DNA from: Candidatus Acidiferrum sp.
GTDB lineage: Bacteria > Vulcanimicrobiota > Vulcanimicrobiia > Vulcanimicrobiales > Vulcanimicrobiaceae
Reading direction: 5' to 3'
DNA: 64,000 bases
NCBI GenBank assembly: GCA_035571115.1
Contig: DATMKR010000057.1
Span: forward strand, 4,231-68,230
Each line of letters begins with the position of its first letter. The first letter of the stretch is position 1. Shown here one piece after another: positions 4,622 through 57,296 of the stretch. The position numbers and the translations under genes are program-made. The notes beneath the pieces are model-generated. The model saw only the letters and a list, made by a program, of their open reading frames with translations, ran no database searches and was not told where the DNA came from.

Positions 4622-6520
4622 GTGCCACGAATAGCATTGTCGGCGGCGATCTCGATACTGATGCTAATTCTCGCAAGCGCTGCAGCGCGCGCGCAAAGCA
4701 CGCCGACGACGGTTCTCTATCTGAAGGCGAAATCGATCAATTTCTACTACGATCGTTTCTTGCTCGAAGCCGACGGCAACGTGCGCCTGCGGACGAGCGA
4801 CGGCTTCACCGTAACCGGCGATGCGTTCACGATGGACCTCAAGCTCAACCGTTTTATGGTCGCGGGACACGTGACGCTGCACGATCCCAGCGGCACGGTG
4901 AGCGGCGCGGCGATCTCGGATTTCCTCGATTTTAAGCGTATTTACTTCGTTCCGGTCACGAGCGAACCCGACCGCTGGACGTTTCTCAACGGCGACCTCG
5001 CGCACCCCGCCAAAGGGCGGGTGATGCCCGGCGACGTCTTCTACTTTCCCCCGATCACGACCCATCCGGACATGTCCGGCACGGGCGCCATCATCGGCAG
5101 CAAATCGTACGTGCGCTTCGTCGGCGCCGTGGCGTACGTCAACGGCGTCGGCGTCCCGCTGGGAAGCAACGTCGTCAGCTTCTCCACGAACCAATATCTC
5201 GCGCAAAACTCGCTCTCGGGTGCCACGGCCGACATCACGTGGCAAGTAGCCGGCAGCCCGAATGCATTAACGGCGCTCCATTTGCGGTACGATCCGACGT
5301 ACAAGCTCTATGGCTCGGTGGAACAGCATTTCGTGGGCGATCACGAGTACGCGATCTTGTCGGTGAATCCCGCGACGCGCGCGGAGAAATGGTGGAATGC
5401 CATGCTGTACGAAAAGCTCGGCAGCCGCTTCCAGATTCAGAGTTTTACGCAATATTACGCGCAACAGAACTATCTCCAGCTGCCGCGGGCGGCGCAACAG
5501 ACGACCTGGATCAACGCCACCTACGCGTTTCCGCATTCCTACGTAACGGCCACCTCGCAGCTGGTCAACTACAACCTCCTGGGACCCGGCTCGCTCGAGG
5601 TTCCCAAGGCGCTCGGCGGCAGCCTCGCACACCCGACGTATCTGCAGTTGACGGCCAACAGCTTTCAAAACAAAATCGCCACGCTGCCGCTTTATGAAAA
5701 CATCTATGAGGGATACGGCTTCGCGCACGACTCGGTGGGCTCGCAGTATCTGAACGGCTTTTCGCCATACTGGCCGATGGGCGGCAAGCCGTTCGCGCCG
5801 ATCACCGTGCCCGGCTTGCAGGCGTACGGAGCTCTCTGCAAAGTTCAACCGTCGAAGTTTTACCAGTACTACTGCCCCACCTACACGACGATCTACAACA
5901 CGGTTCTGGGCTTCAATCTCTACACGCCGTCGCTCAAGCTCAACCACCCCGACAGCCCGTATCAAGAGTACTACTTCAACGCCTCGTTCAACAAACAGCG
6001 CCAGTGGAACTCGCTGCCGCACTATATCGACAACACGAATACGACCCTGACGATCAGCCGCCAGCCCTCGCGGTCGCTCCACATGTACGCCGGCTACGAG
6101 ATTCAAAACATCGGCGACCACTACATCAACGGGGGCTACGAGCAATGCACGGGTCCCGGCACGACGTACTGCCCGGATAGTTTCACGTCGTTTCGCGGCG
6201 TCGCGACCTTGCGCACGACCAGCTTCGGATTCAACGACACGCCGACGCCGACGTTTAATTTCTCGCTGCTCGTTCGGCATCACCAAGACTTTCCAATTCC
6301 GGTGCCGGGGCTCTTCGCGTTTCCTGCGAACAACATTCTCGGCCAGCCGCTCTATTCGTGGTGGCTGGGACAGCCGCCGTATGACGCGACCGGCGATATC
6401 CGCTTCAAGGTTCTTCCTCACACGCTCGCCGATATCTCGCGAACGCTCTACTGGTATGGCAATCCGTACCGGGCGCAATACTGGCAGCAAAACTTCGTGA
6501 TTCAGCTGCTCCCGATATGA
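4622..6520 (+). CDS. Secreted OstA/LptD-like outer-membrane protein (divergent)
   Basis: GTG start and a signal peptide (ILMLILASAAARAQS). The N-terminal region LKAKSINFYYDRFLLEADGNVRLRTSDGFTVTGDAFTMDLKLNRFMVAGHVTLHDPSGTVSG fits the OstA/LptA beta-jellyroll pattern. The long Tyr/Asn/Thr/Gln-rich C-terminal part is consistent with a beta-barrel. Confidence 0.55.
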   Translation: MPRIALSAAISILMLILASAAARAQSTPTTVLYLKAKSINFYYDRFLLEADGNVRLRTSDGFTVTGDAFTMDLKLNRFMVAGHVTLHDPSGTVSGAAISDFLDFKRIYFVPVTSEPDRWTFLNGDLAHPAKGRVMPGDVFYFPPITTHPDMSGTGAIIGSKSYVRFVGAVAYVNGVGVPLGSNVVSFSTNQYLAQNSLSGATADITWQVAGSPNALTALHLRYDPTYKLYGSVEQHFVGDHEYAILSVNPATRAEKWWNAMLYEKLGSRFQIQSFTQYYAQQNYLQLPRAAQQTTWINATYAFPHSYVTATSQLVNYNLLGPGSLEVPKALGGSLAHPTYLQLTANSFQNKIATLPLYENIYEGYGFAHDSVGSQYLNGFSPYWPMGGKPFAPITVPGLQAYGALCKVQPSKFYQYYCPTYTTIYNTVLGFNLYTPSLKLNHPDSPYQEYYFNASFNKQRQWNSLPHYIDNTNTTLTISRQPSRSLHMYAGYEIQNIGDHYINGGYEQCTGPGTTYCPDSFTSFRGVATLRTTSFGFNDTPTPTFNFSLLVRHHQDFPIPVPGLFAFPANNILGQPLYSWWLGQPPYDATGDIRFKVLPHTLADISRTLYWYGNPYRAQYWQQNFVIQLLPI

Positions 6521-6523
6521 TGC

Positions 6524-6575
6524 GTCCTTCGACGGGGCTCAGGATGACAGCGCTAACGAGGCTCAGGACGACAAC
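6524..6575. repeat. Copy of the GC-rich palindromic repeat family (CCTTCGAC..GCTCAGGATGACA)
   Basis: The sequence is gtccttcgacggggctcaggatgacagcgctaacgaggctcaggacgaca, immediately after the lptD-like stop. The same core occurs at 22.9, 39.4, 41.9 and 47.3 kb. Confidence 0.5.
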
Positions 6576-7422
6576 GGTGACGGTGCTGTCGCTGGTGCTC
6601 GCGACTCTGCTCGTGGCCGCCGCCCCTACCGTTATCGTCAGCGGACAGCTGCTTGCCTATCAAGACGGCTTCGTCTTCTTCACGACCGGCGACGGCTTTC
6701 GCGTCGCGCCCGGCATCGTGATCCACGACGCGAAAACCGGCGGCACCACCCAGCTCGTGCCTGCGCCGCGCATCTGGGCCCGCGCCACTTTTGACGCCAC
6801 CGGCACCGTTACCGAACTCGATCTCTCGCGGGCGCCGTTGCCGCCCGAAGGGAACTTCGACGACGTGACGCGCTTCGCGGTTGCGGCGTCGTCGCCGGCG
6901 CCGAATCCGGATCTGCTCGCATATCAGAGTCTCGCCACACCGGCGCCCGGCCAGAGCGCCCCGGCAAACGTGAGCTACTCGGGCAAGCCGGTGCTCGTGA
7001 CGTTCATCGTGCAGGTCCCACCGACAACGCCGCTTACCTCGAGCGTTTACATCTCGACCGATCAAAGTGCATGGAGCGCACAAGCGATCCCCATGGACCG
7101 AATCGACGCGCTGCACTATGAGATCACGCGCCGGTATCCCTCGGGCACGATCTTTCACTATCTTTACGACCGCGGATCGCTTCAGTCGGAGGAGATCGCA
7201 CAGAACGGCCTCAATCGCAAACCACGCGATTTCATCGTCCCCGATGCCGACGTGCGTGTAGTTCGCGACACGGTTTACGGATGGCAAGACCAAGTGCCGG
7301 GAAGCATCAATCAGCAGCAGCCGCAGATCATGCCGACGCCCTACAACCCCGCACCGTTCCCAAATCTTCCGCCGGGAAAGCCTCCCGAACCGCCGCCCCA
7401 AAAGGCCCCACCGGCGCGCTAA
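6544..7422 (+). CDS. Secreted protein of unknown function with a Pro-rich C-terminus
   Basis: The track ORF starts at 6517 (ATGA overlap with the lptD-like stop). The Met at 6544 gives a cleaner signal peptide, MTALTRLRTTTVTVLSLVLATLLVAAAP. The central part (VLVTFIVQVPPTT..VYISTDQSAWSAQAIPMDRID..HY) is vaguely like a carbohydrate-binding Ig-type module. The start is uncertain. Confidence 0.6.
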   Translation: MTALTRLRTTTVTVLSLVLATLLVAAAPTVIVSGQLLAYQDGFVFFTTGDGFRVAPGIVIHDAKTGGTTQLVPAPRIWARATFDATGTVTELDLSRAPLPPEGNFDDVTRFAVAASSPAPNPDLLAYQSLATPAPGQSAPANVSYSGKPVLVTFIVQVPPTTPLTSSVYISTDQSAWSAQAIPMDRIDALHYEITRRYPSGTIFHYLYDRGSLQSEEIAQNGLNRKPRDFIVPDADVRVVRDTVYGWQDQVPGSINQQQPQIMPTPYNPAPFPNLPPGKPPEPPPQKAPPAR

Positions 7423-9290: not shown

Positions 9291-10715
9291 CTAGTCGTTA
9301 TCCGGCGGCCGCGTATCGAGCGGCTGCTTAATGAAATAGTCTGCGTCGTATGCAGCTTTAATCTTGACGAACTTGCGCGGCGGCCGGTTGAAATCGAAGC
9401 AATCGGCTTGCGGTGACTTGGCGCGCTTGTCGCTGGCGGAGAGTCGCGCCAAACCGAACTGATCTTCGACGAATCTTAGAATGCTGCCGTGCTCGTAGTG
9501 CGTGTGCGAAACGAACCCTCGTTTTGCATATGGTGAAATAATCAGCAGCGGAAGGCGATATCCCAGCCCATCGTTGTCGACGTAGGCGGGCGGCTCCGGA
9601 TCGTACCAGCCGCCGGGGTCGTCCCAGAAGATGAAGATCGCGGTGGAGCTCCAAAACTGCGATTCGCCGATCGCATTGACGAGCGATGCGACCCAAGAGG
9701 GGCCCGTATCGGAACCGTTGCCGCCGTGATCGGAGTTTACGTACGTCGGCGTGACCCACGTCACCGCCGCAAGAGTGCCGTCCTTCACGTCGCTTAGGAA
9801 CTGTTGCGGCGGCGATTTAACGTCGGCGTTCCAGTCCGGACCGTAGCAAATGTGCTTGATGGTCTGGTAAGCGCTCCAAATCGCGGTGCGCTCGTCGTTG
9901 CCGTCCAGCTTGGGATCGCTGCCGCTACCGCAGAGGGTCCCGCTGCCCTTGGTTCCGAGGGGAACTGCGTAGAAGGCCCACGGCAAGCCTGCGGCGTCGA
10001 GCTCGTCGCCAAGCGTCGGAGGGTCCCAGCAAGGGAAGACCGAGCCGGTATCGTTTGTATTACGCTTCGCACCAAGGACTCCGACCGCATCGCCTGGGGC
10101 GCCCGGACAGCCCCACCCTTCGTCGGGATAGTCGTACGTATGGTCGGGATTGACGCCCGCGATGATATATTGGTGCGAGATAAAGCTGCTGACGTCGAAG
10201 TTCGAAGCGTACATCTCGTCAGCCAAAACGAACTGCCTCGCCATAGAAAAATATGGCGCCGTCTGCTTTCGGGGCACGTAACTATACGGCGGGTTCGCAT
10301 TCGGGCACCTCGGTTTTCCTGAGGCGCTACAGCCCCACACCTCATTGTCGAAGCCGTTCATCCGGCACTTGGTGCCTGGGATCTTCCCCGTGCCGTTACA
10401 CGATGCAAAGTACCCCTTGGCATTATGCTCGAGATCCCACTTTGTCGCGATCGTAACCGGCTGCAACTCGATTTTCTCGCCATTCGTGTTGTATCCATAC
10501 GTTGCCGTTTTGGCGCCCGGATAGCCGTAAAAAAGATTGTTAAAACTGCGATTCTCTTGAACGATGATGACGATGTGCGCAATCTTGCTCTGCGTTGCGT
10601 GCCGCGAGGCCGTCGGTGAGCTTCGCTGGTTGGGGACTGCCAGACCGGGCGACGCAGCGATGCCGCCGCACCCACCGAGAATCGCCGCGACCGCTATCGT
10701 CACCTGACGAATCAT
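9291..10715 (-). CDS. PLC/AcpA-family phosphoesterase lipoprotein (paralogue A)
   Basis: The start is taken at MIRQVTIAVAAILGGCGG (lipobox). Family motifs are IAHIVIIVQENRSFNNLFYGYPG and GYRLPLLIISPYAKRG. The ATGA overlap with the upstream lipoprotein gene supports this start. The track's longer ORF to 10805 is rejected. Confidence 0.85.
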   Translation of the reverse strand: MIRQVTIAVAAILGGCGGIAASPGLAVPNQRSSPTASRHATQSKIAHIVIIVQENRSFNNLFYGYPGAKTATYGYNTNGEKIELQPVTIATKWDLEHNAKGYFASCNGTGKIPGTKCRMNGFDNEVWGCSASGKPRCPNANPPYSYVPRKQTAPYFSMARQFVLADEMYASNFDVSSFISHQYIIAGVNPDHTYDYPDEGWGCPGAPGDAVGVLGAKRNTNDTGSVFPCWDPPTLGDELDAAGLPWAFYAVPLGTKGSGTLCGSGSDPKLDGNDERTAIWSAYQTIKHICYGPDWNADVKSPPQQFLSDVKDGTLAAVTWVTPTYVNSDHGGNGSDTGPSWVASLVNAIGESQFWSSTAIFIFWDDPGGWYDPEPPAYVDNDGLGYRLPLLIISPYAKRGFVSHTHYEHGSILRFVEDQFGLARLSASDKRAKSPQADCFDFNRPPRKFVKIKAAYDADYFIKQPLDTRPPDND

Positions 10716-22896: not shown

Positions 22897-22975
22897 ATCC
22901 TTCGTCCTTCGACCCTTCGACCCTTCGGCAAGCTCAGGGCAGGCTGAGCTCAGGGCAGGCTGAGCTCAGGGTGAC
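22897..22975. repeat. Copy of the GC-rich repeat family with internal short tandem duplications
   Basis: The sequence is ccttcgtccttcgacccttcgacccttcggcaagctcagggcaggctgagctcagggcaggctgagctcagggtgac. CCTTCGAC is iterated and GCTCAGGGCAGGCTGA is duplicated. It is related to the in-frame ileS copy at 41.8 kb. Confidence 0.5.
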
Positions 22976-23023
22976 CCTCCAGGGGTGACAACGTTAGGTC
23001 GGCCGACGGCGAACTCTGGCGGT

Positions 23024-37380: not shown

Positions 37381-38263
37381 GCAAGCCGGGAAACGCACCG
37401 ACGTCCTCGTCGCTTGGCTCTCGGGGGTTTCGCGAACCCTCGTAACGCAAACCGCTCGGCGGGGAGAGGTTCTCGTCAACGGCAGCCCTGCCAAACCCAG
37501 CCGCCTGTTAGAAACCGGCGACGTGCTCGAGTTCGAAATTGCACAGCCGCCCGCGCTCGTAGCGCGGCCCGAACCGATTCCGCTCGACGTCGTTTACGAA
37601 GACGACGATCTGCTCGTCATCAATAAAGATGCCGGAATGGTGTCGCATCCGGCGCACGGTACGACGAGCGGGACGCTGGTCAACGCGCTGCTCGCACACG
37701 TCCAGGCAAGCCTTCCCGGCGATCTGCTGCGCCCCGGACTCGTCCACCGGCTCGATCGCGACACCTCCGGCCTGCTCGTCGTCGCGAAGCGCGAAGAGAG
37801 CCTGCGCGCTCTCGGCCTCGCAATGAAAGCGCGCCGCATCGAGCGCGAGTATCTCGGACTCGTGCGCGGCATCCCGCAGCACCCGCTCGGCACGATCGAA
37901 GGACCGATCGGACGCGATCCGCGCAATCGTCTGAGGTTCGCGATCGTCGCCGACGGCAAACCCGCCCTGACGCACTACGAGGTGCGTGAAGCCTTTGCGG
38001 CGCACTCCGAGTTGCTCTTTCGCCTCGAAACCGGCAGAACGCACCAGATTCGCGTGCACATGGCCGGGATCGGCCATCCGATCCTCAACGATCCGCTCTA
38101 TGGCAAGATTGAATCGCGGTTCGAGCTTCGGGGACAGGCGCTGCATGCGTGGCGGCTTGCGTTTCGCCACCCACGCACCGACGAAGCGCTGTCATTTGAA
38201 GCTGCGCCTCCTCGCGAGTACATGCAGGCTCGCGCGCTCGTAAGCAGCAACAAGAATGTTTGA
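37361..38263 (+). CDS. rluD: RluA-family 23S rRNA pseudouridine synthase (RluD-like)
   Basis: S4 domain, then HRLDRDTSGLLVVAK and GRTHQIRVH. A TTG at 37361 is proposed as the start, since the track ATG at 37307 lies inside lspA. Confidence 0.85.
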   Translation: MHVVTAEQAGKRTDVLVAWLSGVSRTLVTQTARRGEVLVNGSPAKPSRLLETGDVLEFEIAQPPALVARPEPIPLDVVYEDDDLLVINKDAGMVSHPAHGTTSGTLVNALLAHVQASLPGDLLRPGLVHRLDRDTSGLLVVAKREESLRALGLAMKARRIEREYLGLVRGIPQHPLGTIEGPIGRDPRNRLRFAIVADGKPALTHYEVREAFAAHSELLFRLETGRTHQIRVHMAGIGHPILNDPLYGKIESRFELRGQALHAWRLAFRHPRTDEALSFEAAPPREYMQARALVSSNKNV

Positions 38264-39368
38264 GCTTCTCGCTAAAGACGGTAACGCGCGGCGCGGGCGG
38301 CTGCAGCTCGCGCACGGAATCGTGGAGACGCCGTGTTTTATGCCGGTGGGGACGGCGGGGACGGTCAAGGGATTGACGCCGGCCGAGCTGGTGGAAGCGC
38401 AGTCGCAGATCGTGCTTGCGAACACGTATCATCTCTGGTTGCGGCCCGGACTGGAGACGATCGAGCGCGCAGGCGGCCTCCATGCATTTATGGCTTGGGA
38501 ACGGCCAATTCTTACGGATTCGGGCGGCTTTCAGGTTTTCAGTTTGGAGAGCAGGCGTGAGGTCGATGACGACGGCGTCACGTTTCGGTCGCATCTTGAT
38601 GGGAGCGAGCATCGGTTCACGCCCGAGAACGTTGTCGCGTTTCAAGAGGCCGTCGGGAGCGATGTTGCGATGGCGCTCGATGTGTGCGTGAAGCTTCCCG
38701 CGGCGCGTGACGCGCTCGAAGAGTCGGTGCGTCTGACGACCCTCTGGGCTCAGCGCTCCGCCGCCGCGCGCACGGTGCCGGCGACGGCGCTCTTTGGGAT
38801 CGTACAAGGCGGGTTAGAGCCGGCGTTGCGAGAGCGCAGCGCGCGCGAGTTGGTGGCGCTCGATTTTCCTGGGTACGCGATCGGTGGACTCTCCGTCGGC
38901 GAGACGCGCGAGCAGATGTACGCGACCGCACGCGTAACGGCGGCGATACTTCCGAAAGAGAAGCCCCGCTATCTCATGGGCGTCGGGACCGTTCGCGACC
39001 TTCTGGAAGCGATCGATGCCGGGCTGGATCTCTTCGACTGCGTCTACCCGACGCGCTGTGGACGCAACGGACGCGCGATGACTCACGACGGCGAGCTCAA
39101 CCTCTTCAATGCCGCCTTCACGCGCGATTTCGCGCCGGTCGATCCGCGCTGCGACTGCGACACCTGCACGACCTTCTCGCGCGCGTATCTCTCCCATCTC
39201 TTCCGCAGCAAGGAGATGCTCGGGCCGCGCCTGCTCTCGCATCACAACGTGTATCTCGTCAACGCGCTGATGCGCGAAGCACGCGCGGCGATCGAGGCGC
39301 GGGAGTGGACGAACTTTCGGGAATGCCGGCGTGGGTGGCTGGGTCATCCTTCGACAGGCTCAGGATGA
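38256..39368 (+). CDS. tgt: Queuine tRNA-ribosyltransferase
   Basis: Motifs: TDSGGFQVFSL, LFGIVQGG, DCVYPTRCGRNG, and the zinc site CDCDTCTTFSRAYLSHL. The last roughly 8 codons and the stop lie in repeat-derived sequence. Confidence 0.9.
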   Translation: MFELLAKDGNARRGRLQLAHGIVETPCFMPVGTAGTVKGLTPAELVEAQSQIVLANTYHLWLRPGLETIERAGGLHAFMAWERPILTDSGGFQVFSLESRREVDDDGVTFRSHLDGSEHRFTPENVVAFQEAVGSDVAMALDVCVKLPAARDALEESVRLTTLWAQRSAAARTVPATALFGIVQGGLEPALRERSARELVALDFPGYAIGGLSVGETREQMYATARVTAAILPKEKPRYLMGVGTVRDLLEAIDAGLDLFDCVYPTRCGRNGRAMTHDGELNLFNAAFTRDFAPVDPRCDCDTCTTFSRAYLSHLFRSKEMLGPRLLSHHNVYLVNALMREARAAIEAREWTNFRECRRGWLGHPSTGSG

Positions 39369-39380
39369 CATCGACAAGCT

Positions 39381-39795
39381 CAGGATGACACTGGGAGTCC
39401 AAATTCCTCAGCGTCTGCGCGAAGCGCAGTCCTGAGCAAGGCTCCTGAGCTTGGCGAAGGGGCCGAGTCGAAGGGTCAGGATGACACTGGGAGTCCAAAT
39501 TCCTCAGCGTCTGCGCGAAGCGCAGTCCTGAGCAAGGCTCCTGAGCTTGGCGAAGGGGCCGAGTCGAAGGGTCAGGATGACACTAGGAGTCCAAATTCCT
39601 CAGCGCCTGCGCGAAGCGCAGTCCTGAGCGAGGCTCCTGAGCTTGGCGAAGGGGCCGAGTCGAAGGGTCAGGATGACATCGACAGCATGACACTAGGAGT
39701 CCAAATTCCTCAGCGTCTGCGCGAAGCGCAGTCCTGAGCAAGGCTCCTGAGCTTGGCGAAGGGGCCGAGTCGAAGGGTCAGGATGACACTGGGAG
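39381..39795. repeat. Tandem array of a 96-bp unit (4 full copies plus a partial copy)
   Basis: Units start at 39381, 39477, 39573 and 39669, with a partial unit at 39779. Units 1 and 2 are identical. Unit 3 differs at 3 positions. Unit 4 carries a 14-nt insertion. Each unit contains the hairpin CTGCGCgaaGCGCAG and the motifs TCCTGAGCAAGGCTCCTGAGC and GTCAGGATGACAC. Confidence 0.9.
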
Positions 39796-42600
39796 GGCGC
39801 GCACGACGCGCGTGCAATCCGCGCAAATATCGGGATGATCGGGATCCTCGCCGAGCTCCCGGTACTTCCAACACCGCACGCACTTGGCTCCGTCCGCGGG
39901 CAATAACTCGAAGGCTTCCGCTTCGCCCGAGCTCAGCGTCAACTGGGAGACGACCAACGCCTCACGCAGGTTGTCGCCAAGCGCGAGCAGCCGCTTGTAG
40001 ACCGCGGGGGGCACCGTAAGGCGCACCTGCGCCTCGAAGTCGCGCGGCTCCGCCGACGCCGCCACTCGGGCGCGCAGGGCGCGCAGTTGGCGCCAGAGCA
40101 CGAGGTCGCTTTCCGCGGCAGCGTTTCGGGACCGGTTTACATCGAAGGAACTGTCGAAAACGCTTTCGGTCCGCTCTCGGCGCCATTGGGGAAGATGCTG
40201 CCACGCCTCCTCCGCGGTAAACGAAAGCACGGGCGCGACCGTCGTGAAAAATCGCGTCGCGATGTAGAGCAGCGCCGACTGTGCGCTGCGGCGGCGTGGA
40301 TCGCCGGCAGCGCGCGAGTAGAGCGGATCCTTGAGCGCGTCGAAAAAGAGGCTCGACATCGAGCTTTCGAACTCGACGATGCGCAGATAGGCATCGTGTA
40401 TCTCGCAGGAATCGTACGCCTCTTTAACGCCGGCGACGAACGCGTCGGTCACGCTGCAGGCAAGCCGGTCGATCGGCTCCATCGCTTCGCGCGCGACGAC
40501 GTCCGCGGCGGAAAGGTCCTCCAGATTCGAGAGCATGAAGCGCATGCGATTTCGCAGGTTTCGGTAGACGCGTCCGACTTGGTCGACGACGTTGGGCCCG
40601 AAGCGCACGTCGTCGATGGGCTCGACCGAGGCAGCCCACAACCGTAAGACGTCGGCGCCCCAGCGGGCCATCGCATCGCTCGCGTCGATGCCGGTTCCCC
40701 GCGATTTCGACATGGGGCGGCCTTCTTCGTCGTTCACCCAGCCGTTCTTCATCACGCGCCGGTACGGCGCGCGGCCTTTGATCGCGACGGCCGTGATGAG
40801 CGAGCTGCGAAACCAGCCTCGGAACTGATCGCCGCCCTCGAGAACGAGGTCGCTCGGCCACGGCATCCCATCGCGTCCCAGCACGGCGAGGTGGGTCACT
40901 CCCGACTCAAACCAAATGTCGACGACGTTCTTCTCTTTTTCGAGATCGCAACCACCGCAGCGCGGACAGACGAAGCCGTCGGGAAGATAGGTCTGCACCG
41001 GATCGCTCCACCACGAACCTGCGCCGGCCTCGGCAAAACGTTTCGCGGCAATGCGCGCCACGCGCGGATCGAGGATCGCCTCGGCGCACTCTTTGCAGAC
41101 TAAGGACGGAATCGGCGTTCCCCACGTTCGCTGCCGCGAAAGACACCACTCGGGATGCGTTTCGATCATCTGCCGCTGGCGCGCACGCCCCCATTGCGGC
41201 GCGTACTCGACTGCGTCGGTCGCGTCGAGCGCACGCTGGCGAAGCAGGTTTTGATCCATCGCGAGAAACCACTGCGCCGTCGCGCGGAAAATCACGGGAT
41301 TGTGACAGCGCCAGCAATGTGGATAGGAATGCTGGTACTCCGCCGCGCTCCACAGCGCACCGCTCGCGCGCAAGTCGTCGACGATGCGCGCATTGGCCGC
41401 GAAAATGTTCATGCCGGCGTAGGGCCCGGCCTCGGCCGTAAAACGGCCGGCCGCATCGACCGGATTGAGAATCGGCAGACCGTATTTCATTCCCGTATCG
41501 AAATCGTCGGCCCCGTGCCCGGGCGCAGTGTGAACTGCTCCCGTCCCGGTCTCGAGGTCCACGTACGGCGCGAGCACGATCGTCGAATCGCGCTCCATGA
41601 ACGGATGGCGCACGGCGAGTCCGTCGAGCCGTTCGCCAAGTGCGCGGCCAATCAGCGTCGCCTCTGCGAATCGCTCGCCCAGCGCGCGTTGCGCGAGCGC
41701 CTCGGCGACGATCAGCATCTCGCCGTCCACGCGATAGAGCCCGTAGGTCGCGTCGGCGCGCAAAGCGATGGCCACGTTTGCCGGAAGCGTCCACGGCGTC
41801 GTCGTCCAGATGAGGAATGAGACTGGGATCGCAGTGTCACCCTGAGCCAGCCTGCCCTGAGCGCTGTCGAAGGGAAGGGCGACACTGCCAGCGCCATCAT
41901 GCTTCGGCGGGCTCAGCATGACACCGAGGATCCGTTCCCGCTGCTCGTCGTTCGCGGCGAAGCGAACGTAGATCGAAGGTGACGTGCGCTGCTCGTACTC
42001 GATCTCGGCCTCCGCCAGCGCCGTCTCGTCGTGGACGCACCAGAGCGTCGAGCGCAAACCCTTATAGATTTGTTGGCGCTCGGCCAGATCGGCAAGCGCG
42101 TTTACGATCGTTGCTTCAAAAGAGGGATCGATCGTGCGGTACGGATGGTCGAGGAAGCCGAAGGTACCCATCCGCCTCCGCTGCTCTCGTTGACGCTCGA
42201 GCCAGTAGAGAGCGCGTTCTTTGCACTGCGCGCGCAGTTCGAGCGGATCGACGGCGTGAAAATCCTTGATTCCCAAATACTTGAGCGTTTCGTACTCGAT
42301 GGGGAGTCCGTGCATGTCCCAGCCGGGAACGAACTTCGCGTACTTCCCGTCGAGCAGTGCGATCTTCACGAACATGTCCTTGAGCACCATGTTTAGGAAA
42401 TGGCCCATGTGCAGCTCGCCGTTCGCATACGGCGGCCCGTCGTGCAAAATCCACGCACCGCTCGGCGCGTTGCGCTCCAAGCGCCGTTCGTACGTACCTT
42501 GCTCGTTCCACCACGCGACGCGCTGCGGCTCTCGCTTGGAAAGATCCGCCTTCATCGGAAAGGCGGTCTTCGGCAGATTCAACGTGTTCCGGTAATCCAT
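39778..42600 (-). CDS. ileS: Isoleucine--tRNA ligase (type 1)
   Basis: Start at MDYRNTLNLPKTAFPMKADL (ATG 42600, TGATG overlap with the csaB stop). Motifs: PYANGELHMGH, WTTTPWTLPAN, KMSKS-like RPMSKSRG, and a C-terminal Zn motif CVRCWKY...CADC. The 124-aa upstream extension in the track (to 42972) is an artefact. Confidence 0.95.
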   Translation of the reverse strand: MDYRNTLNLPKTAFPMKADLSKREPQRVAWWNEQGTYERRLERNAPSGAWILHDGPPYANGELHMGHFLNMVLKDMFVKIALLDGKYAKFVPGWDMHGLPIEYETLKYLGIKDFHAVDPLELRAQCKERALYWLERQREQRRRMGTFGFLDHPYRTIDPSFEATIVNALADLAERQQIYKGLRSTLWCVHDETALAEAEIEYEQRTSPSIYVRFAANDEQRERILGVMLSPPKHDGAGSVALPFDSAQGRLAQGDTAIPVSFLIWTTTPWTLPANVAIALRADATYGLYRVDGEMLIVAEALAQRALGERFAEATLIGRALGERLDGLAVRHPFMERDSTIVLAPYVDLETGTGAVHTAPGHGADDFDTGMKYGLPILNPVDAAGRFTAEAGPYAGMNIFAANARIVDDLRASGALWSAAEYQHSYPHCWRCHNPVIFRATAQWFLAMDQNLLRQRALDATDAVEYAPQWGRARQRQMIETHPEWCLSRQRTWGTPIPSLVCKECAEAILDPRVARIAAKRFAEAGAGSWWSDPVQTYLPDGFVCPRCGGCDLEKEKNVVDIWFESGVTHLAVLGRDGMPWPSDLVLEGGDQFRGWFRSSLITAVAIKGRAPYRRVMKNGWVNDEEGRPMSKSRGTGIDASDAMARWGADVLRLWAASVEPIDDVRFGPNVVDQVGRVYRNLRNRMRFMLSNLEDLSAADVVAREAMEPIDRLACSVTDAFVAGVKEAYDSCEIHDAYLRIVEFESSMSSLFFDALKDPLYSRAAGDPRRRSAQSALLYIATRFFTTVAPVLSFTAEEAWQHLPQWRRERTESVFDSSFDVNRSRNAAAESDLVLWRQLRALRARVAASAEPRDFEAQVRLTVPPAVYKRLLALGDNLREALVVSQLTLSSGEAEAFELLPADGAKCVRCWKYRELGEDPDHPDICADCTRVVRALPVSS
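41819..41925. repeat. Repeat-family copy embedded in frame in ileS
   Basis: The minus strand reads ggtgtcatgctgagcccgcc...cccttcgacagcgctcagggcaggctggctcagggtgacact and encodes GVMLSPPKHDGAGSVALPFDSAQGRLAQGDTAIPVS just before IWTTTPWT. It closely resembles the intergenic copy at 22.9 kb and has inverted termini GTCATGCTGAGC / GCTCAGGGTGAC. Confidence 0.5.
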
Positions 42601-43697
42601 CACTCGTCGTCCAAGAGCTCGCCGAGGACCTCGAAGTTTCGCTCTGCGGCCGCCTGGACAACCGGGAGGCGCTGCGCCAACGCAGCCGAGAGACGATCGC
42701 GCTCGGAGACGAGCCGGTCGACGAGCGCGTCGATCGCGCCGTCGCTCGGGCGCGGTCTGCCTGGAATCCAGAGCGGCTGCAAAGGATAGTCGAGATCCTC
42801 GCAGAGCGCCGTCACTTTCGGATCGTACGGTATGGCGAGAAATGGGACGGCGAAGCGCGCGGCGAGAACCAGCGCGTGCAGACGCATACCGATCGCGAGG
42901 CGAGCGCCCTGTAAAATCGCGGCTGCCTTTTCGAGCGTGCACTCGGGAAGCAGCACGGGCGCCGACGAGCAAGCGCGAATGACGTCGGTCGACAGGGCAG
43001 CATCGGGCGCGCCTCCCAACGGCAAAAAGGCCGCACGCACGTTGTGGCGGTCTGCGAGGCGATCGACGGCCCGCGCGAGGACGGGTATCCCATCCCGGAA
43101 CGATGCGGCCTTTCGCACGCTGATCACGGCATAGGCGCCGCTCTCCGGCCCGAGGCCGTCGGCCGCAAGATCGTCACGCGCTGCAGGCCGGTCGTACAAA
43201 AAGACGGGATCCGCGGTGCGCTCGACCGGCGCGCCGGGCAAGAGATCCTTGAGCAAACGCAGCGACCGCTCGTCGCGCACGGTTGCCCGATCGAGGCCCC
43301 TGCAGAAGCCTCGCACCACCCAGCGCCCCCAAAAATCGAGCGGTCCGATGGATTGAGCGAAGATCATCGCTTTGCGTCCGCTGCGAATCGCTTCGCGCAA
43401 AACCGCAGCGTAATAGAGCAGGCTGCGCAGGCTCGTTTCGTTTTGCAAGAGACCTCCGCCGCCGGAGAGCACGACGTCGGCCCGTCCGATGGCGGTGCGA
43501 ACGGCGCGCCAATCCCATCGAGCCGTCGCGTCGACGCGATAGGCGGCTGCGGTACGCTGAGGTGTTGCCGATAGCACTTCGATCGATGCCGCGGGAAAGT
43601 CACGGCGCAGACGCTCGACGATCACCTCGAGCAGCGCCTCGTCGCCCAAATTGCCAAAGCCGTAATAGCCGGAGATCAGTACGCGCGCCCTTTCGAC
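42600..43697 (-). CDS. csaB: Polysaccharide pyruvyl transferase CsaB
   Basis: Motifs: VLISGYYGFGNLGDEALLEVIVERL, VVLSGGGGLLQN. The start is unresolved: no ATG/GTG/TTG lies in frame between the upstream gene's stop (43727) and the conserved N-terminus. The track ORF to 44351 is an Arg-rich overlap artefact. Confidence 0.75.
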   Translation of the reverse strand, partial: VERARVLISGYYGFGNLGDEALLEVIVERLRRDFPAASIEVLSATPQRTAAAYRVDATARWDWRAVRTAIGRADVVLSGGGGLLQNETSLRSLLYYAAVLREAIRSGRKAMIFAQSIGPLDFWGRWVVRGFCRGLDRATVRDERSLRLLKDLLPGAPVERTADPVFLYDRPAARDDLAADGLGPESGAYAVISVRKAASFRDGIPVLARAVDRLADRHNVRAAFLPLGGAPDAALSTDVIRACSSAPVLLPECTLEKAAAILQGARLAIGMRLHALVLAARFAVPFLAIPYDPKVTALCEDLDYPLQPLWIPGRPRPSDGAIDALVDRLVSERDRLSAALAQRLPVVQAAAERNFEVLGELLDDE

Positions 43698-47310: not shown

Positions 47311-47422
47311 CCCTTCGACAAGCTCAGGAGCCTTGCTCAGGATGACAATGGGCGATGACGGCCCTTCGACGCGGCCCCTTCGACAAGCTCAGGAGCCTTG
47401 CTCAGGATGACAATGGGCGATG
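47311..47422. repeat. Perfect 47-bp direct repeat (two copies, 65-bp period) of the repeat family, abutting tRNA-Val
   Basis: cccttcgacaagctcaggagccttgctcaggatgacaatgggcgatg occurs at 47311-47357 and 47376-47422. The last 9 nt of copy 2 are the 3' acceptor end of tRNA-Val. Confidence 0.85.
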
Positions 47423-47486
47423 CAGGACTTGAACCTGCGACATCCTCCTTGTAAGGGAGGCGCTCTCCCAGCTGAGCTAATCGCCC
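47414..47486 (-). tRNA. tRNA-Val (anticodon TAC)
   Basis: The reverse complement GGGCGATTAGCTCAGCTGGGAGAGCGCCTCCCTTACAAGGAGGATGTCGCAGGTTCAAGTCCTGCATCGCCCA folds as a canonical 73-nt cloverleaf: 7-bp acceptor stem, GCTC/GAGC D stem, CCTCC/GGAGG anticodon stem with loop CTTACAA, and GCAGG/CCTGC T stem. CCA is not encoded. Confidence 0.9.
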
Positions 47487-47565
47487 ACGCTTGCTAGCGC
47501 GTAACCCTTCGGCCGAACCGGTTTCTTTTACTTCACGGAGCGCCGGGTTGCTGTGGGAGGTTTAG

Positions 47566-50536: not shown

Positions 50537-51880
50537 ATGGGCGATCAAAATCGGATGGTGTGGTGCTGCCTTCTCAGCGCCATGCTGACGGCGTGCGGCG
50601 GCGGTTCCACTCCAGCAGGCGGAGGGCCATTCGAGCCTCCGCCCCCCGCCAAACAGGGTAACTACTTCAAGCATATCGTGATCTTGATTCAAGAAAATAG
50701 GACGTTCGACAATCTCTTCGCGACCTTTCCGGGCGCGGACGGCACCAGGTCCGGCAAGACACACAACGGCAAGATTCTACTGCGGGCCGGCGACCTCGAG
50801 AGCGAGGTCTCGCCCAACAACGGCTACAACTGCTGCTGGCAGCGCGATTGGAACCGCGGCAAGATGAACCACTTCGACCTCGTGCGTATCGGCAGAGTGC
50901 CGGGCACCTTCGTCTATCAATACGTCCATCCGGATCAGATCGCGCCGTACTGGGATTTGGCCAAGCAATACGTGCTTTCGGATCACATGTTCCAAACTCA
51001 AGGCAGCGGAAGTTTCACCGCGCACCAGGATCTGATTCGCGGCGATACCGCCATCAACGAGACGTCCAACCTGATCGATTTTCCAACCGGCGGCGCAGAC
51101 CAGCCGTGGGGCTGCGACGCGAACCCGGGCACGAGGACGTCGCTCATTACCGCGGACAATAAATACTCCGGCAACGTCGGACCGTTTCCGTGCCTAACGT
51201 ATGCTACGCTGCGCGATCTGCTCGACCCAAAGGATATCTCGTGGCGCTACTACGCGCCCGCGGTCGGAGGCAACTTCGGCGGTAATCTTTGGAATGCATT
51301 CGATGCCATCAAAGCGGTGCGGTACGGGCCGGAATGGACGACGAACGAGGCCAATCCGGAGACGAGAGTCTTCACCGACATTTCGCGCGATACGCTTCCG
51401 TCGGTTGCGTGGGTGATTCCCGACTATCAGAACTCCGATCATCCCGGAGACAACTCCGACACCGGTCCCTCGTGGGTCGCACAAGTCGTCAACGCGATCG
51501 GCCAAAGCCCGGCCTGGAAGACGACGGCCATCGTGATCGTGTGGGACGACTGGGGCGGATGGTACGATCACGTCCCGCCGCCGGGTCCGCATCGCTACGG
51601 CGGCCTCGGCTTCCGCGTGCCGGCCATCGTCGTTTCGCCGTATTCGAGACCCGGCTACGTCTCTCACAATATTTACCAGTTTGGAAGCATCATAAAGTTC
51701 GTCGAGGAAAACTGGCAACTCCCGAGCCTCGGAACGACGGATAAGACCTCCGCGAGCTTCATTAAAGATTTCTTTGACTTCACGCAGCACCCGCGCAAGT
51801 TCGTTCCAATCGGCTCGAAGTATTCCAGGTCATTTTTCTTGCATCAACTACCGTCGAACCAACCGGTCGACTCCGAGTAA
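50537..51880 (+). CDS. PLC/AcpA-family phosphoesterase lipoprotein (paralogue B)
   Basis: Lipobox LSAMLTAC. Motifs: [74 protein letters not shown]. Confidence 0.85.
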
Positions 51881-54414: not shown

Positions 54415-55934
54415 TGCGGCTCGCGCCGATCGGCGTGGCCGTGCTCGCGAGCGTCGCGCTGTCCGCCTGCGGCGGCGCGAGCATTCCCGGCACGGCGGCG
54501 CTGCCGGCGGTCCATCACCGCACTTCGAGCAGCTCGCCGATCCAGCACGTCATCATCGTGATTCAAGAGAATCGCAGCTTCGACGACCTATTCGCCACGT
54601 TTCCAAACGCCGACGGAACGACCACCGGCACGGGCGAGCCGATGCCAAAAGCGGAAGCATCGACTTGCGCGAAAGACAACCAGCAGGTGGTCACGCAGTC
54701 GAAGCCGGCCGTTTCGCTGACGAAGGTCTCGCTCATCGGCGTGGGATTCCCGAAATTCAAAAACGGCGGCGGCAAGCTCGTGTCGTTTGGCGAGGGCACC
54801 GATCTTCCGCACGTGTACGGATGGTACGCCATAACGCCGTTTTTGGATGAATACGACAACGGCAAGATGGACGGCTTCGACCGGGAAGGTTCGGGAGCGA
54901 ACGGCAACGGCTCGACGCTTTGCACCTACCCGTACCAGTACGTGAATCCCGGCGCGATTAAGGAGTACTGGGATCTAGCGCAGCAATACGTGCTCGCGGA
55001 CAAGACGTTCCAGACACAAGGCAGCGGATCGTTCACCGCACATCAGGATCTGATCGCGGGCGGCACCGTCGTCAACTATACCTACGGCGGCTACACCGAC
55101 GACAGCGTGATCGATAATCCTTCGTTCTGGCCGTGGGGATGCGACGCACCGCACGGGGTGGTGACGTCGTTGATCACGACGAACCTGCAATACCTGCAGT
55201 TCAAAGGGCCCTTTCCGTGTTTGGGCTACGAAACGATGCGCGATCTCCTCGACGCGAAGTCGGTCTCCTGGAAATACTATGCAGAGCAGGTGAAGGGCGG
55301 GAACGCCGGCCTTTGGAGCGCCTTCGACGCGATCAAAGCCGTCCGCGATAGTAAGGAATGGACGACCAACGTCACCACGAGCCCGAACGTGATCTTTCAA
55401 GATATTAAGGCCGGCAGTCTCCCTGCCGTCTCCTGGGTCACGCCCATTGGAGAGAACTCCGACCATCCCGATGAGAAGGGAGCGGGGGGCAAATACGTCG
55501 ACAACGGCCCGTCGTGGGTCGCCAACGTCGTCAATCAGATCGGCGAGAGTCAGTACTGGAACTCGAGCGCGATCGTGGTTCTCTGGGACGACTGGGGCGG
55601 CTTCTACGATCACGTTCCTCCCCCGTGCCTGTACAAGTCGCAATGCCGCGACAACCAAGGCGGCTTGGGATTCCGCGTTCCGATGATCATCGTGTCGCCT
55701 TACGTGAAGGCGCACGTCGAGCACACGCAGTACGAGTTCGGCAGCATTCTGAAGTACATTGAAGACAACTGGGACCTGGGGTCGCTCGGCACGACCGACC
55801 AGCGCGCGACGAGCATCGGAAACGTCTTCAACTATAGTCAGAAGCCGCGCAAGTTCAAAGTGATCCCGGCAGCCCTTCCGTTATCGTTCTTCTTACATCA
55901 GAAGCCGTCGGGCGCACCACCCGATACCGAATAG
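54414..55934 (+). CDS. PLC/AcpA-family phosphoesterase lipoprotein (paralogue C)
   Basis: GTG start shares 1 nt with the sulfotransferase stop. Lipobox VALSAC. Motifs: [59 protein letters not shown]. Confidence 0.85.
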   Translation: MRLAPIGVAVLASVALSACGGASIPGTAALPAVHHRTSSSSPIQHVIIVIQENRSFDDLFATFPNADGTTTGTGEPMPKAEASTCAKDNQQVVTQSKPAVSLTKVSLIGVGFPKFKNGGGKLVSFGEGTDLPHVYGWYAITPFLDEYDNGKMDGFDREGSGANGNGSTLCTYPYQYVNPGAIKEYWDLAQQYVLADKTFQTQGSGSFTAHQDLIAGGTVVNYTYGGYTDDSVIDNPSFWPWGCDAPHGVVTSLITTNLQYLQFKGPFPCLGYETMRDLLDAKSVSWKYYAEQVKGGNAGLWSAFDAIKAVRDSKEWTTNVTTSPNVIFQDIKAGSLPAVSWVTPIGENSDHPDEKGAGGKYVDNGPSWVANVVNQIGESQYWNSSAIVVLWDDWGGFYDHVPPPCLYKSQCRDNQGGLGFRVPMIIVSPYVKAHVEHTQYEFGSILKYIEDNWDLGSLGTTDQRATSIGNVFNYSQKPRKFKVIPAALPLSFFLHQKPSGAPPDTE

Positions 55935-55937
55935 CTC

Positions 55938-57296
55938 GTGAAGCCGCTGGCCTTTGCCGCCGCTGCTTTCATCCTCGGTGCGTGCAATGCCGGAACATCG
56001 CAGGGCGTGCCGAGTGTGCTTGCGGTCCGGCCGATATCGAGATCGCACAGCTCGCCGATCTCGCACATCGTCCTCATCGTTCAGGAGAACCGGACGTTTA
56101 ACAATCTTTTCGCCACGTTCCCCGGAACCGTCGGTACGACGACCGGCAAAGAGCTCGTCGGCGGTAAGGTCAAGTCAATAAATCTCACCGAAGTACCTCT
56201 CGAATCCCCGAAGACGCTTCGCCACACGTACACCGGCTATAGGATCGGCTATAACGGCGGGCAGATGGACGGCTTCAATCTGATCCGCTTTCTAACCAGC
56301 GGAAAGTATGAAGGCGCTCTTCCTTATGAGTACGTCGACCCTGCGGACGTCGCGCCCTATTGGGCTATCGCAACCGATTACGCGATTGCGGACCATATGT
56401 TCACGACCCAAGGCAGCTCCAGCTTTCCAGCCCACCAGGATCTGATCCGCGGCGGTACGGCCATCGATCCGACGGAGAGTCTCATCGACGACCCCGACAA
56501 GACGCCGTGGGGCTGCCCCGCGCCGCCCGGCACGACGACCGAGCTCATCACGACCACGCTGAAATACGAAAGACACGGCCCGCCTCCGTGCACGTCGGAT
56601 TTTCCCTCGTCAGGAAACTACGATACGCTGCAAGAGTTGCTGGATGCGAAACACGTATCGTGGAAATACTATACGCCCGCATATGAGGGCAATACCGGCG
56701 CGATGTGGAACGCCTTCACGGTCATCGCTTCAGTCTTCGACAATAAGACGGAGTGGAACGCCCACATCTCGCAGCCCGAAACGAATATCTTTACCGATAT
56801 CTCCAACGGCGCGCTGCCGTCGATGTCGTGGGTGATCCCGGACGCCTTCAACTCCGATCATTCCGGCTATAAATCCGACACCGGGCCGTCCTGGGTGGCA
56901 AGCGTCGTGAACGCGATCGGTCAGAGCTCGTACTGGAACTCCACCGCAATCGTGATCGTATGGGACGACTGGGGCGGTTTCTACGACGAAGTCGAGCCGC
57001 CGAAACCCGACAATCAGGGCGGTCCGGGCCTCCGCGTGCCGATGCTGATCGTCTCGCCCTATGTCGGGCAAAACGAAATATCGCACAAAACGTTCGAGTT
57101 CGGAAGCATCGTCCGATTCATCGAAGATACATGGAACCTGGGACGCCTCGGAACCACCGACGAGACGACGAAAAGCATCGCCTCGATGTTCGATTTCAAC
57201 CAGTCCCCGCGGTCCTTTATCACGATTCCGTCGAAACACTCGAAGGCGTTCTTCCTTCACCAAAAGCCGTCCGGCTTGCCCGTCGACGACGAATAG
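55938..57296 (+). CDS. PLC/AcpA-family phosphoesterase lipoprotein (paralogue D)
   Basis: GTG start 3 nt after the upstream stop. Lipobox FILGAC. Motifs: [59 protein letters not shown]. Confidence 0.85.
   Translation: MKPLAFAAAAFILGACNAGTSQGVPSVLAVRPISRSHSSPISHIVLIVQENRTFNNLFATFPGTVGTTTGKELVGGKVKSINLTEVPLESPKTLRHTYTGYRIGYNGGQMDGFNLIRFLTSGKYEGALPYEYVDPADVAPYWAIATDYAIADHMFTTQGSSSFPAHQDLIRGGTAIDPTESLIDDPDKTPWGCPAPPGTTTELITTTLKYERHGPPPCTSDFPSSGNYDTLQELLDAKHVSWKYYTPAYEGNTGAMWNAFTVIASVFDNKTEWNAHISQPETNIFTDISNGALPSMSWVIPDAFNSDHSGYKSDTGPSWVASVVNAIGQSSYWNSTAIVIVWDDWGGFYDEVEPPKPDNQGGPGLRVPMLIVSPYVGQNEISHKTFEFGSIVRFIEDTWNLGRLGTTDETTKSIASMFDFNQSPRSFITIPSKHSKAFFLHQKPSGLPVDDE

Follow-up and report, generated by a model that had tools for sequence, protein, structure and literature searches.

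The isoleucyl-tRNA synthetase (IleRS) gene ileS, located in a 64,000-nucleotide (nt) stretch of contig DATMKR010000057.1 (the window), carries an in-frame insert of 29 codons built from two oppositely oriented units of a 27-nt palindromic repeat. Most orthologues lack the insert, and different arrangements of the same unit recur at this one loop across the uncultured phylum Eremiobacterota. We consider it probable that a selfish palindrome, similar to the repetitive extragenic palindromic (REP) sequences of other bacteria, landed in ileS and was tolerated there as a neutral passenger. This would be a case of selfish palindromic DNA remodeling an essential, conserved enzyme in a way that can be traced along the phylogeny. 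In-frame palindromic repeats are not new as a phenomenon; what is noteworthy here is the recurrence at a single loop of the IleRS editing domain and a nine-codon unit that is open in both orientations and spread across phyla.

An inverted repeat dimer in the editing domain of IleS

The IleS protein of the window contains the Pfam domains tRNA-synt_1, Anticodon_1, and zf-FPG_IleRS and matches IleRS structures in the PDB with E = 2e-205. Its closest homologues bear names of Eremiobacterota, from the Baltobacteraceae / Candidatus Cybelea group. On the minus strand, the coding sequence starts at position 42600 and ends with a stop codon at 39778-39780. A mechanically called open reading frame (ORF) at 42601-42972 runs for 124 codons upstream of this start (MDYRNTLNLP); the extension is rich in Arg and Ala, has no counterpart in homologues, and is probably not translated.

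The anatomy of the repeat emerges from a comparison of loop DNA among 80 ileS loci of Eremiobacterota, taken from species-representative genomes. The basic unit of the family is a 27-nt hairpin, GTCAYSCTGAGCYTGTCGAAGSRTGAC, in which a stem of 6-8 bp (GTCAYS/SRTGAC) surrounds the interior CTGAGCYTGTCGAAG. Its length is exactly nine codons. Frame 0 of one orientation encodes V-(M/I/T)-LSLSK-(H/G/D)-D, the other orientation encodes V-(M/I)-LRQAQ-(H/G/D)-D, and a third stop-free frame encodes SSFD(K/R)LRMT; the remaining three of the six frames contain TGA. A copy can therefore either extend a protein in frame or end an ORF.

In ileS, the insert consists of two such units in inverted orientation and is partly decayed and expanded by 21 nt (coordinates of all features are in Table 1). 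Its architecture was set by comparison with the clean dimer of locus L004 and with empty-type loops such as that of L011. In L004, unit A, a 12-nt spacer, and an oppositely oriented unit A' together encode VMLSLSKHD-GAGS-VALRQAQGD, and the arms of the inverted dimer are 21 nt long and near-perfect. Unit A' is also unexpanded in L048 (27 nt, VALRQAQGD in both loci). The expansion within unit A' of the window duplicates a GCTCAGGGCAGGCTG module, which is tandemly repeated at 22931-22971 as well.

An earlier reading of the window, made without database searches (the sequence-only reading), had described this part of ileS as a near copy of an intergenic element at 22.9 kb, bounded by inverted termini and lying in frame just before the WTTTPWT motif. 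Our analysis agrees on each of these points. The ileS sequence CCTTCGACAGCGCTCAGGGCAGGCTGGCTCAGGGTGAC and its counterpart in the 22.9-kb element, CCTTCGGCAAGCTCAGGGCAGGCTGAGCTCAGGGTGAC, have a 15-mer and a 12-mer in common without any mismatch and agree in ~35 of 39 aligned columns. The inverted termini GTCATGCTGAGC and GCTCAGGGTGAC are present at 41911-41922 and 41836-41847, respectively. The segment flagged there, delimited here as 41818-41925, encloses the insert together with ancestral flanking codons (G226 and TAIPVS) on either side of the repeat-derived part at 41836-41922.

Family motifs are strongly enriched in the window: GCTCAGGRYRAC has 8 matches where 0.15 are expected, CCTTCGRCARSCTCAGG has 9 (0.04 expected), and GTCAYSCTGAGC, with at most one mismatch allowed, has 16 (1.4 expected). 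A 126-nt region of ileS folds in prediction as one long hairpin, both as RNA (-56.4 kcal/mol, z = -2.7, matched by 1 of 200 shuffles) and as DNA (-29.1 kcal/mol, z = -2.8). We considered whether the outer stem of this hairpin, GGATC/GATCC, belongs to the element and rejected it; its bases come from ancestral codons (RIL ... AIP), which orthologues without the insert have as well, and we count the pairing as coincidental.

The insert lengthens a loop that is short in most relatives. Aligned to the IleRS structures 8C9E and 1FFY, the window protein matches in two blocks, residues 1-218 and 261-934; the 42 residues between them face 9 in those chains, or 33 extra. The loop from YVRF to S-[FVI]LIW was also measured, using 120 homologous proteins and the 74 genomic loci that were usable. 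Its basal length among Eremiobacterota orthologues is 23-26 residues versus 47 in the window, and most have ~22 fewer. Both measures bear out the estimate in the sequence-only reading of a loop longer by ~25 residues.

The insertion is also specific to a lineage, a possibility that the same reading had proposed to settle by aligning orthologues. The host ORF is intact, in frame, and colinear on both sides of the insert, which is absent from most orthologues. Among the closest relatives, L024, L001, and L002 carry the insert, and L004 and L048 carry a version that is 21 nt shorter. Other members of the same 90-96% clade have quite different unit-derived inserts (L003, L005, L007, and L076) or the short loop (L006 and L055). 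In short-read and curated assemblies, every retained loop allele has a length divisible by three and contains no stop codon. In three Nanopore-based metagenome-assembled genomes (MAGs; L070, L077, and L078), ileS is seemingly frameshifted within the loop; either a real disruption or an error in sequencing through the hairpin could account for this.

Recurrence and constraint at one IleRS loop

The Eremiobacterota ileS loci scanned span 653 kb and contain 75 motif matches, 42 of which fall in this loop. Most of the other matches lie at the ileS stop codon and 3′ end or outside ileS. There were none elsewhere inside ileS in these 653 kb, as the apparent exceptions (L070, L074, and L077) proved to be in the loop too. 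On a tree built without the loop, different unit-derived inserts occupy at least 10 separate clades and are mixed among short loops. A single 90%-identity cluster contains at least eight loop alleles of 26-47 residues. The sequence-only reading had suggested that the site might undergo programmed variation, for which we found no support: although variation between lineages is very high, three distinct proteins within that cluster have the window allele unchanged.

The 3′ end of ileS is a second hot spot for the family. In the window and in L024, L002, L004, L048, and L007, the gene has a repeat-derived end, and in the window a repeat terminus provides the last three to five codons together with the TGA stop. 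The ancestral end, ...LQGAA-TAA, is retained in L001, L003, L055, and L076.

Could the loop inserts descend from one ancient insertion in a Cybelea-like ancestor, followed by vertical descent, decay, and deletion, with no hot spot at all? The unit begins at the same Val codon in many lineages, and the GTCATGCT that empty-type loops retain (encoding VML or VMH) is a possible scar, both of which fit such a history. Set against it is the unit GTCATGCTTCGACAGGCTCAGCATGAC, which is identical in L003, L010, L025, and L043, even though their flanking ileS sequence is only ~80% identical (78-82%; ~60% at third codon positions). At 0.79 identity per base, the probability of 27 matches in 27 positions is ~0.002. 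As the insert itself is unconstrained, simple vertical inheritance cannot explain this identity; judging from these sequences, a conserved master sequence must have inserted repeatedly, or copies elsewhere in the genome must have converted the loop. Both orientations of the unit are also seen, as are different arrangements. In lineages with Phe in place of Met at the point of entry (L031, L041, L067, and L074), they start 3-7 codons further downstream, and the insertion points are thus clustered, not identical. Moreover, the inserts of L003 and the window are non-homologous and their loop sequences unalignable, although the flanks differ by only ~5-6%. We regard a single origin as improbable.

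To assess constraint on the encoded peptide, we counted codon differences between pairs of sequences in the window's clade. In three comparisons, non-synonymous and synonymous differences in the insert numbered 7:1, 6:0, and 5:2, whereas in the flanks synonymous exceeded non-synonymous differences by 104:23, 136:37, and 128:48, or ~4:1 in favor of silent change (Fisher's exact p = 1e-4, insert versus flanks, for the window against L024). Because changes in the insert mainly alter amino acids, they lend no support to the proposal of the sequence-only reading that the repeat has been exapted as a surface loop, and they point to a peptide that would be an unconstrained, tolerated passenger.

A model of the protein made with AlphaFold2 (AF2) fits this picture. 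The predicted local distance difference test (pLDDT) score is ~50 at residues 231-250, compared with 92 for the adjoining helix (221-230) and 90 for the WTTTPW strand (261-270). The insert position falls in a gap of the alignment to 8C9E and 1FFY. Modeled in this way, the insert would be a flexible loop.

If a selfish repeat did settle in ileS as a passenger, an inverted dimer (27 + 12 + 27 nt) would have entered between the first helix of the CP1 editing domain and the β-strand carrying WTTTPWT, in the segment that connects them. In the window's lineage, one unit would then have decayed and the other grown through a 21-nt slippage duplication. Only stop-free additions in multiples of three, within a permissive loop, could be expected to survive in an essential gene, and the 29 encoded residues would form a flexible surface loop rich in Gly, Ala, Ser, and Gln whose sequence is unconstrained. 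At hairpins and inverted dimers, slippage, deletion, and inversion may be favored, as may re-insertion or gene conversion from copies elsewhere in the genome, and such events would render the loop hypervariable across the phylum. We infer that the insert is translated and that it is neutral for enzyme function. The loop would then be a natural experiment that reveals which sites of aminoacyl-tRNA synthetases tolerate insertions, with a bearing on how length-variable protein loops originate through repeat-driven indels.

Several points weigh against this explanation. The GTAG or CGTC tag was not found at the ends of the units, where GTCA is preceded by T in 45 of 72 copies and by C in 14 (the sequence context upstream is usually CCCAnT-GTCAYCC). 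No transposase was identified, the window proteins not having been scanned for the REP-associated tyrosine transposase (RAYT) family (PF01797). Comparing L004 and the window with empty-type loops, we saw by eye no target-site duplication flanking the insert. Empty-type loops (L011 and L022) have the upstream stem GTCATGCT too, such that the boundaries of the insertion cannot be fixed; these loops may be truly naive or may be scars. The pairwise substitution comparisons are not phylogenetically independent, and diversifying selection would equally yield an excess of non-synonymous changes. Finally, the AF2 model is only moderate (mean pLDDT 75) and contains other stretches of low confidence, making it weak evidence for disorder.

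Diversifying selection is the core of another explanation, in which the loop, beside the editing site, is functional and adaptively hypervariable and the repeats are its raw material. Selection might, for example, favor escape from a toxin, a phage factor, or an IleRS inhibitor, or might tune editing. An essential enzyme that is otherwise conserved does show extreme turnover of alleles at one single site, there is an excess of non-synonymous changes, and in the loci scanned the motif matches at no other site inside ileS; yet the pooled non-synonymous to synonymous ratio of ~4:1 is the neutral expectation, and a short basal loop suffices in many lineages. The unit also occurs in unrelated proteins and mostly between genes, and the variation consists of whole modules and indels, with no diversity-generating machinery or pattern. 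Adaptive hypervariability is, in our judgment, unlikely. We give similarly little credence to a wider version in which a mobile hairpin present in several phyla has a true target preference, repeatedly re-colonizes the IleRS loop, and leaves a hypervariable loop that selection keeps or exploits. If that were true, selfish hairpins would be a natural cassette system for diversifying a loop of an essential enzyme.

It is very unlikely that the insert is missing from the mature protein through removal of the hairpin from the RNA or splicing of the segment from the protein. The strength of the mRNA hairpin (-56 kcal/mol) would favor such removal, but neither intein nor intron signatures are present, Rfam gives no match, and the in-frame, stop-free alleles of the short-read and curated assemblies are expected only if the insert is translated. 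In addition, Rickettsia proteins that bear the repeat RPE-1 are reported to be expressed in vivo (PMC3733652). From the sequence, the tryptic peptide HDGAGSVALPFDSAQGR is predicted to mark the translated ileS insert.

It is extremely unlikely that the insert arose during assembly as a chimera joined through a repeat, and we reject mis-assembly, against which the sequence-only reading had advised a check: repeats can mislead assemblers, and three Nanopore-based relatives are frameshifted in the loop, but the exact 940-residue protein was assembled on 7 contigs from several sources (NCBI, JGI, and Logan), and homologous inserts, in frame and colinear, are present in independent MAGs (L024, L001, and L002).

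Relation to known palindromic repeats

The sequence-only reading called a repeat inside an aminoacyl-tRNA synthetase gene unusual, which overstates the case, since there are precedents among both the Rickettsia palindromic elements (RPEs) and REPs. As recounted in two later papers (PMC3733652; PMC10969869), in-frame palindromic repeats were first described as RPEs (Ogata et al. 2000/2002; Claverie and Ogata 2003). The phenomenon was later widened to REPs in many bacteria (PMC3733652; PMC10969869). Di Nocera et al. 2013 described REPs between convergent genes and REP termini that supply stop codons (PMC3733652). REP dimers can encode 20-30 residues, and tRNA synthetases are among their hosts; the supplement lists a CGTC-1 REP dimer at residues 467-488 of the Erythrobacter litoralis isoleucyl-tRNA synthetase, ELI_13550 (PMC3733652). 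Different REPs also occupy about the same site of recB in two Xanthomonas species (PMC3733652).

The family described here resembles intragenic REPs in many respects. Both are short palindromes that are mostly intergenic and lie near the 3′ ends of convergent genes, often as inverted dimers; both occur occasionally in frame, encoding ~7-30 residues, and both have termini that donate stop codons. With a palindromic unit of 27 nt, within the 20-40 bp of REP units, and frequent inverted dimers near ORF 3′ ends, the family is REP-like by these features. However, its unit lacks the GTAG or CGTC tag that defines the REP superfamilies. In contrast to the Erythrobacter case, the insertion here is in the N-terminal part of CP1, and the recurrence, at one loop throughout a whole phylum, goes far beyond the Xanthomonas recB case.

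Similarly, RPEs and this family are both selfish palindromes, appear in frame in many unrelated and often essential genes, are compatible with the fold of the host protein, and encode a conserved peptide (PMC3733652; PMC10969869). RPEs are ~100-150 bp long and confined to Rickettsia, whereas the unit here is 27 nt (66-87 nt as a dimer) and has no sequence relation to them. The host in our case is a free-living phylum of soil or peat, the Eremiobacterota, and the likeness is functional only.

Bacterial interspersed mosaic elements (BIMEs) of E. coli are mosaics of inverted REP pairs and are extragenic. Like them, this family forms inverted dimers with a short spacer, clusters between convergent genes, and builds composite tandem arrays, but there is no sequence similarity. 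The miniature inverted-repeat transposable elements known as MITEs, such as Correia/NEMIS, ERIC, and Nezha, are, like this family, non-autonomous and are sometimes fused in frame with host ORFs (PMC10969869). MITEs span 70-300 bp and have terminal inverted repeats and target-site duplications; in contrast, the unit here is 27 nt and no duplication was seen.

On the basis of these sequence comparisons, the family behaves like RPEs and intragenic REPs yet belongs to neither. Literature searches with the unit and its peptides as strings returned unrelated primer matches or nothing, a tentative sign that the family has so far gone undescribed.

Copies of the family in metagenomes and in the window

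When a profile was built from the insert peptide plus short flanking sequence and searched against a set of 5.8 billion proteins, it gave only two insignificant matches. Since the peptide profile was uninformative, we examined generality at the DNA level. The exact 27-nt unit is present in at least 120 metagenome contigs (L081-L200) with GC contents of 30-70%, mostly in intergenic positions. In 125 metagenome copies among the matches listed, the stem is GTCATC/GATGAC 90 times and GTCATG/CATGAC 35 times, and no mixed pair appears among the 12 commonest stem pairs listed. These data imply a cross-phylum family with a strictly covarying stem.

In three of these contigs, the unit lies in frame within a Pfam domain: as SSFDKLRMT in a RadA-like ATPase (L101), as VILSLSKDD in a MazG/TP_methylase protein (L133), and as VILRQAQDD in a 3-hydroxyacyl-CoA dehydrogenase (L187). 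The peptides VMLRQAQHD, VILSLSKDD, and SFDKLRMT can serve in annotation as flags for repeat-derived sequence. Five repeat-rich metagenome loci with 4-6 unit interiors each, together with L107, which has three, contained no transposase-like ORF when the first 60 residues of ORFs of at least 110 residues were read, with no profile search. Judged by their first 60 residues only, the ORFs of the L105 contig are putatively phage-like. L082 is putatively Bacteroidota-like, and its unit lies between genes that, by eye, are putative gyrB and gyrA.

Table 1. Positions in the window of ileS, its repeat-derived parts, the neighboring tgt gene, and other copies of the family
Feature	Positions	Strand	Description
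ileS coding sequence	39778-42600	minus	940 aa, stop codon included in span; HMGH, MSKS, WTTTPWT, C-terminal zinc finger
Segment of the sequence-only reading	41818-41925	minus	IleS residues 226-261, GVMLSPPKHDGAGSVALPFDSAQGRLAQGDTAIPVS; followed by FLIWTTTPWT
Repeat-derived insert proper	41836-41922	minus	87 nt, 29 codons, VMLSPPKHD-GAGS-VALPFDSAQGRLAQGD
Unit A	41896-41922	minus	GTCATGCTGAGCCCGCCGAAGCATGAT, encoding VMLSPPKHD; 3 mismatches to consensus; decayed interior
Spacer between units	41884-41895	minus	12 nt, GGCGCTGGCAGT, encoding GAGS; common to L001 and L004
Unit A', opposite orientation	41836-41883	minus	GTCGCC CTTCCCTTCGACAGCGCTCAGGGCAGGCTGGCTCAG GGTGAC, encoding VALPFDSAQGRLAQGD; 21-nt internal expansion
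Repeat terminus	39776-39787	minus	GTCATCCTGAcc; provides last ileS codons and TGA (ccaGTGTCATCCTGA, PVSS-stop)
tgt (queuine tRNA-ribosyltransferase)	38256-39368	plus	Pfam TGT, 1e-148; convergent with ileS
Perfect 27-nt consensus unit	39343-39369	minus	GTCATCCTGAGCCTGTCGAAGGATGAC; between convergent ileS and tgt, 410 nt downstream of ileS
Tandem array	39380-39795		96-nt composite of family modules x4.2; 89% matches; strand not assigned
Intergenic copy	22899-22989	plus	Same GGGCAGGCTG variant as the ileS insert
Two identical 47-nt family copies	47311-47422	plus	65 nt apart; adjoining tRNA-Val
Family copy	6526-6572	plus	Just past the stop codon (6518-6520) of ORF 4622-6520

Beyond the ileS insert, the window holds copies of the family at four sites. 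They are mostly intergenic, and the others overlap ORF ends only. One site lies between ileS and tgt. The last eight codons of tgt (GHPSTGSG) and its TGA fall within the perfect unit at 39343-39369, read on the plus strand, and the array of 96-nt composites abuts and overlaps the 3′ end of ileS. Since the ends of tgt and ileS are both in family sequence, both convergent genes terminate in repeat-derived DNA. The composite also includes a small GC hairpin, CTGCGCGAAGCGCAG.

The copy at 22899-22989 contains internal tandem duplications, namely a 16-nt unit, AGCTCAGGGCAGGCTG, repeated 2.6 times and repeats of CCCTTCGA. Slippage at this site is of the same kind as that which expanded the ileS copy by 21 nt. 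Both 47-nt copies near tRNA-Val end in AATGGGCGATG, which in the second copy shares bases with the 3′ end of the tRNA gene (47413-47487, minus strand), and the first copy thus holds a duplicate of a fragment of the tRNA end. The copy at 6526-6572 lies within a listed ORF, 6517-7422, whose true start we assume to be downstream of the copy. Searches of Rfam, at gathering thresholds and at E <= 1, returned no family for the repeats, and a blastn search of plasmids with the repeat cluster returned no match.

The window also contains three gene-sized segments, at 50651-51643, 54525-55703, and 56043-57062, that are unrelated to the repeat family. They share 62-79% identity and, from their sequences, may be tandem paralogues. 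A 54-nt inverted match to these segments is found on the opposite strand near 10.5 kb, at 10531-10584.

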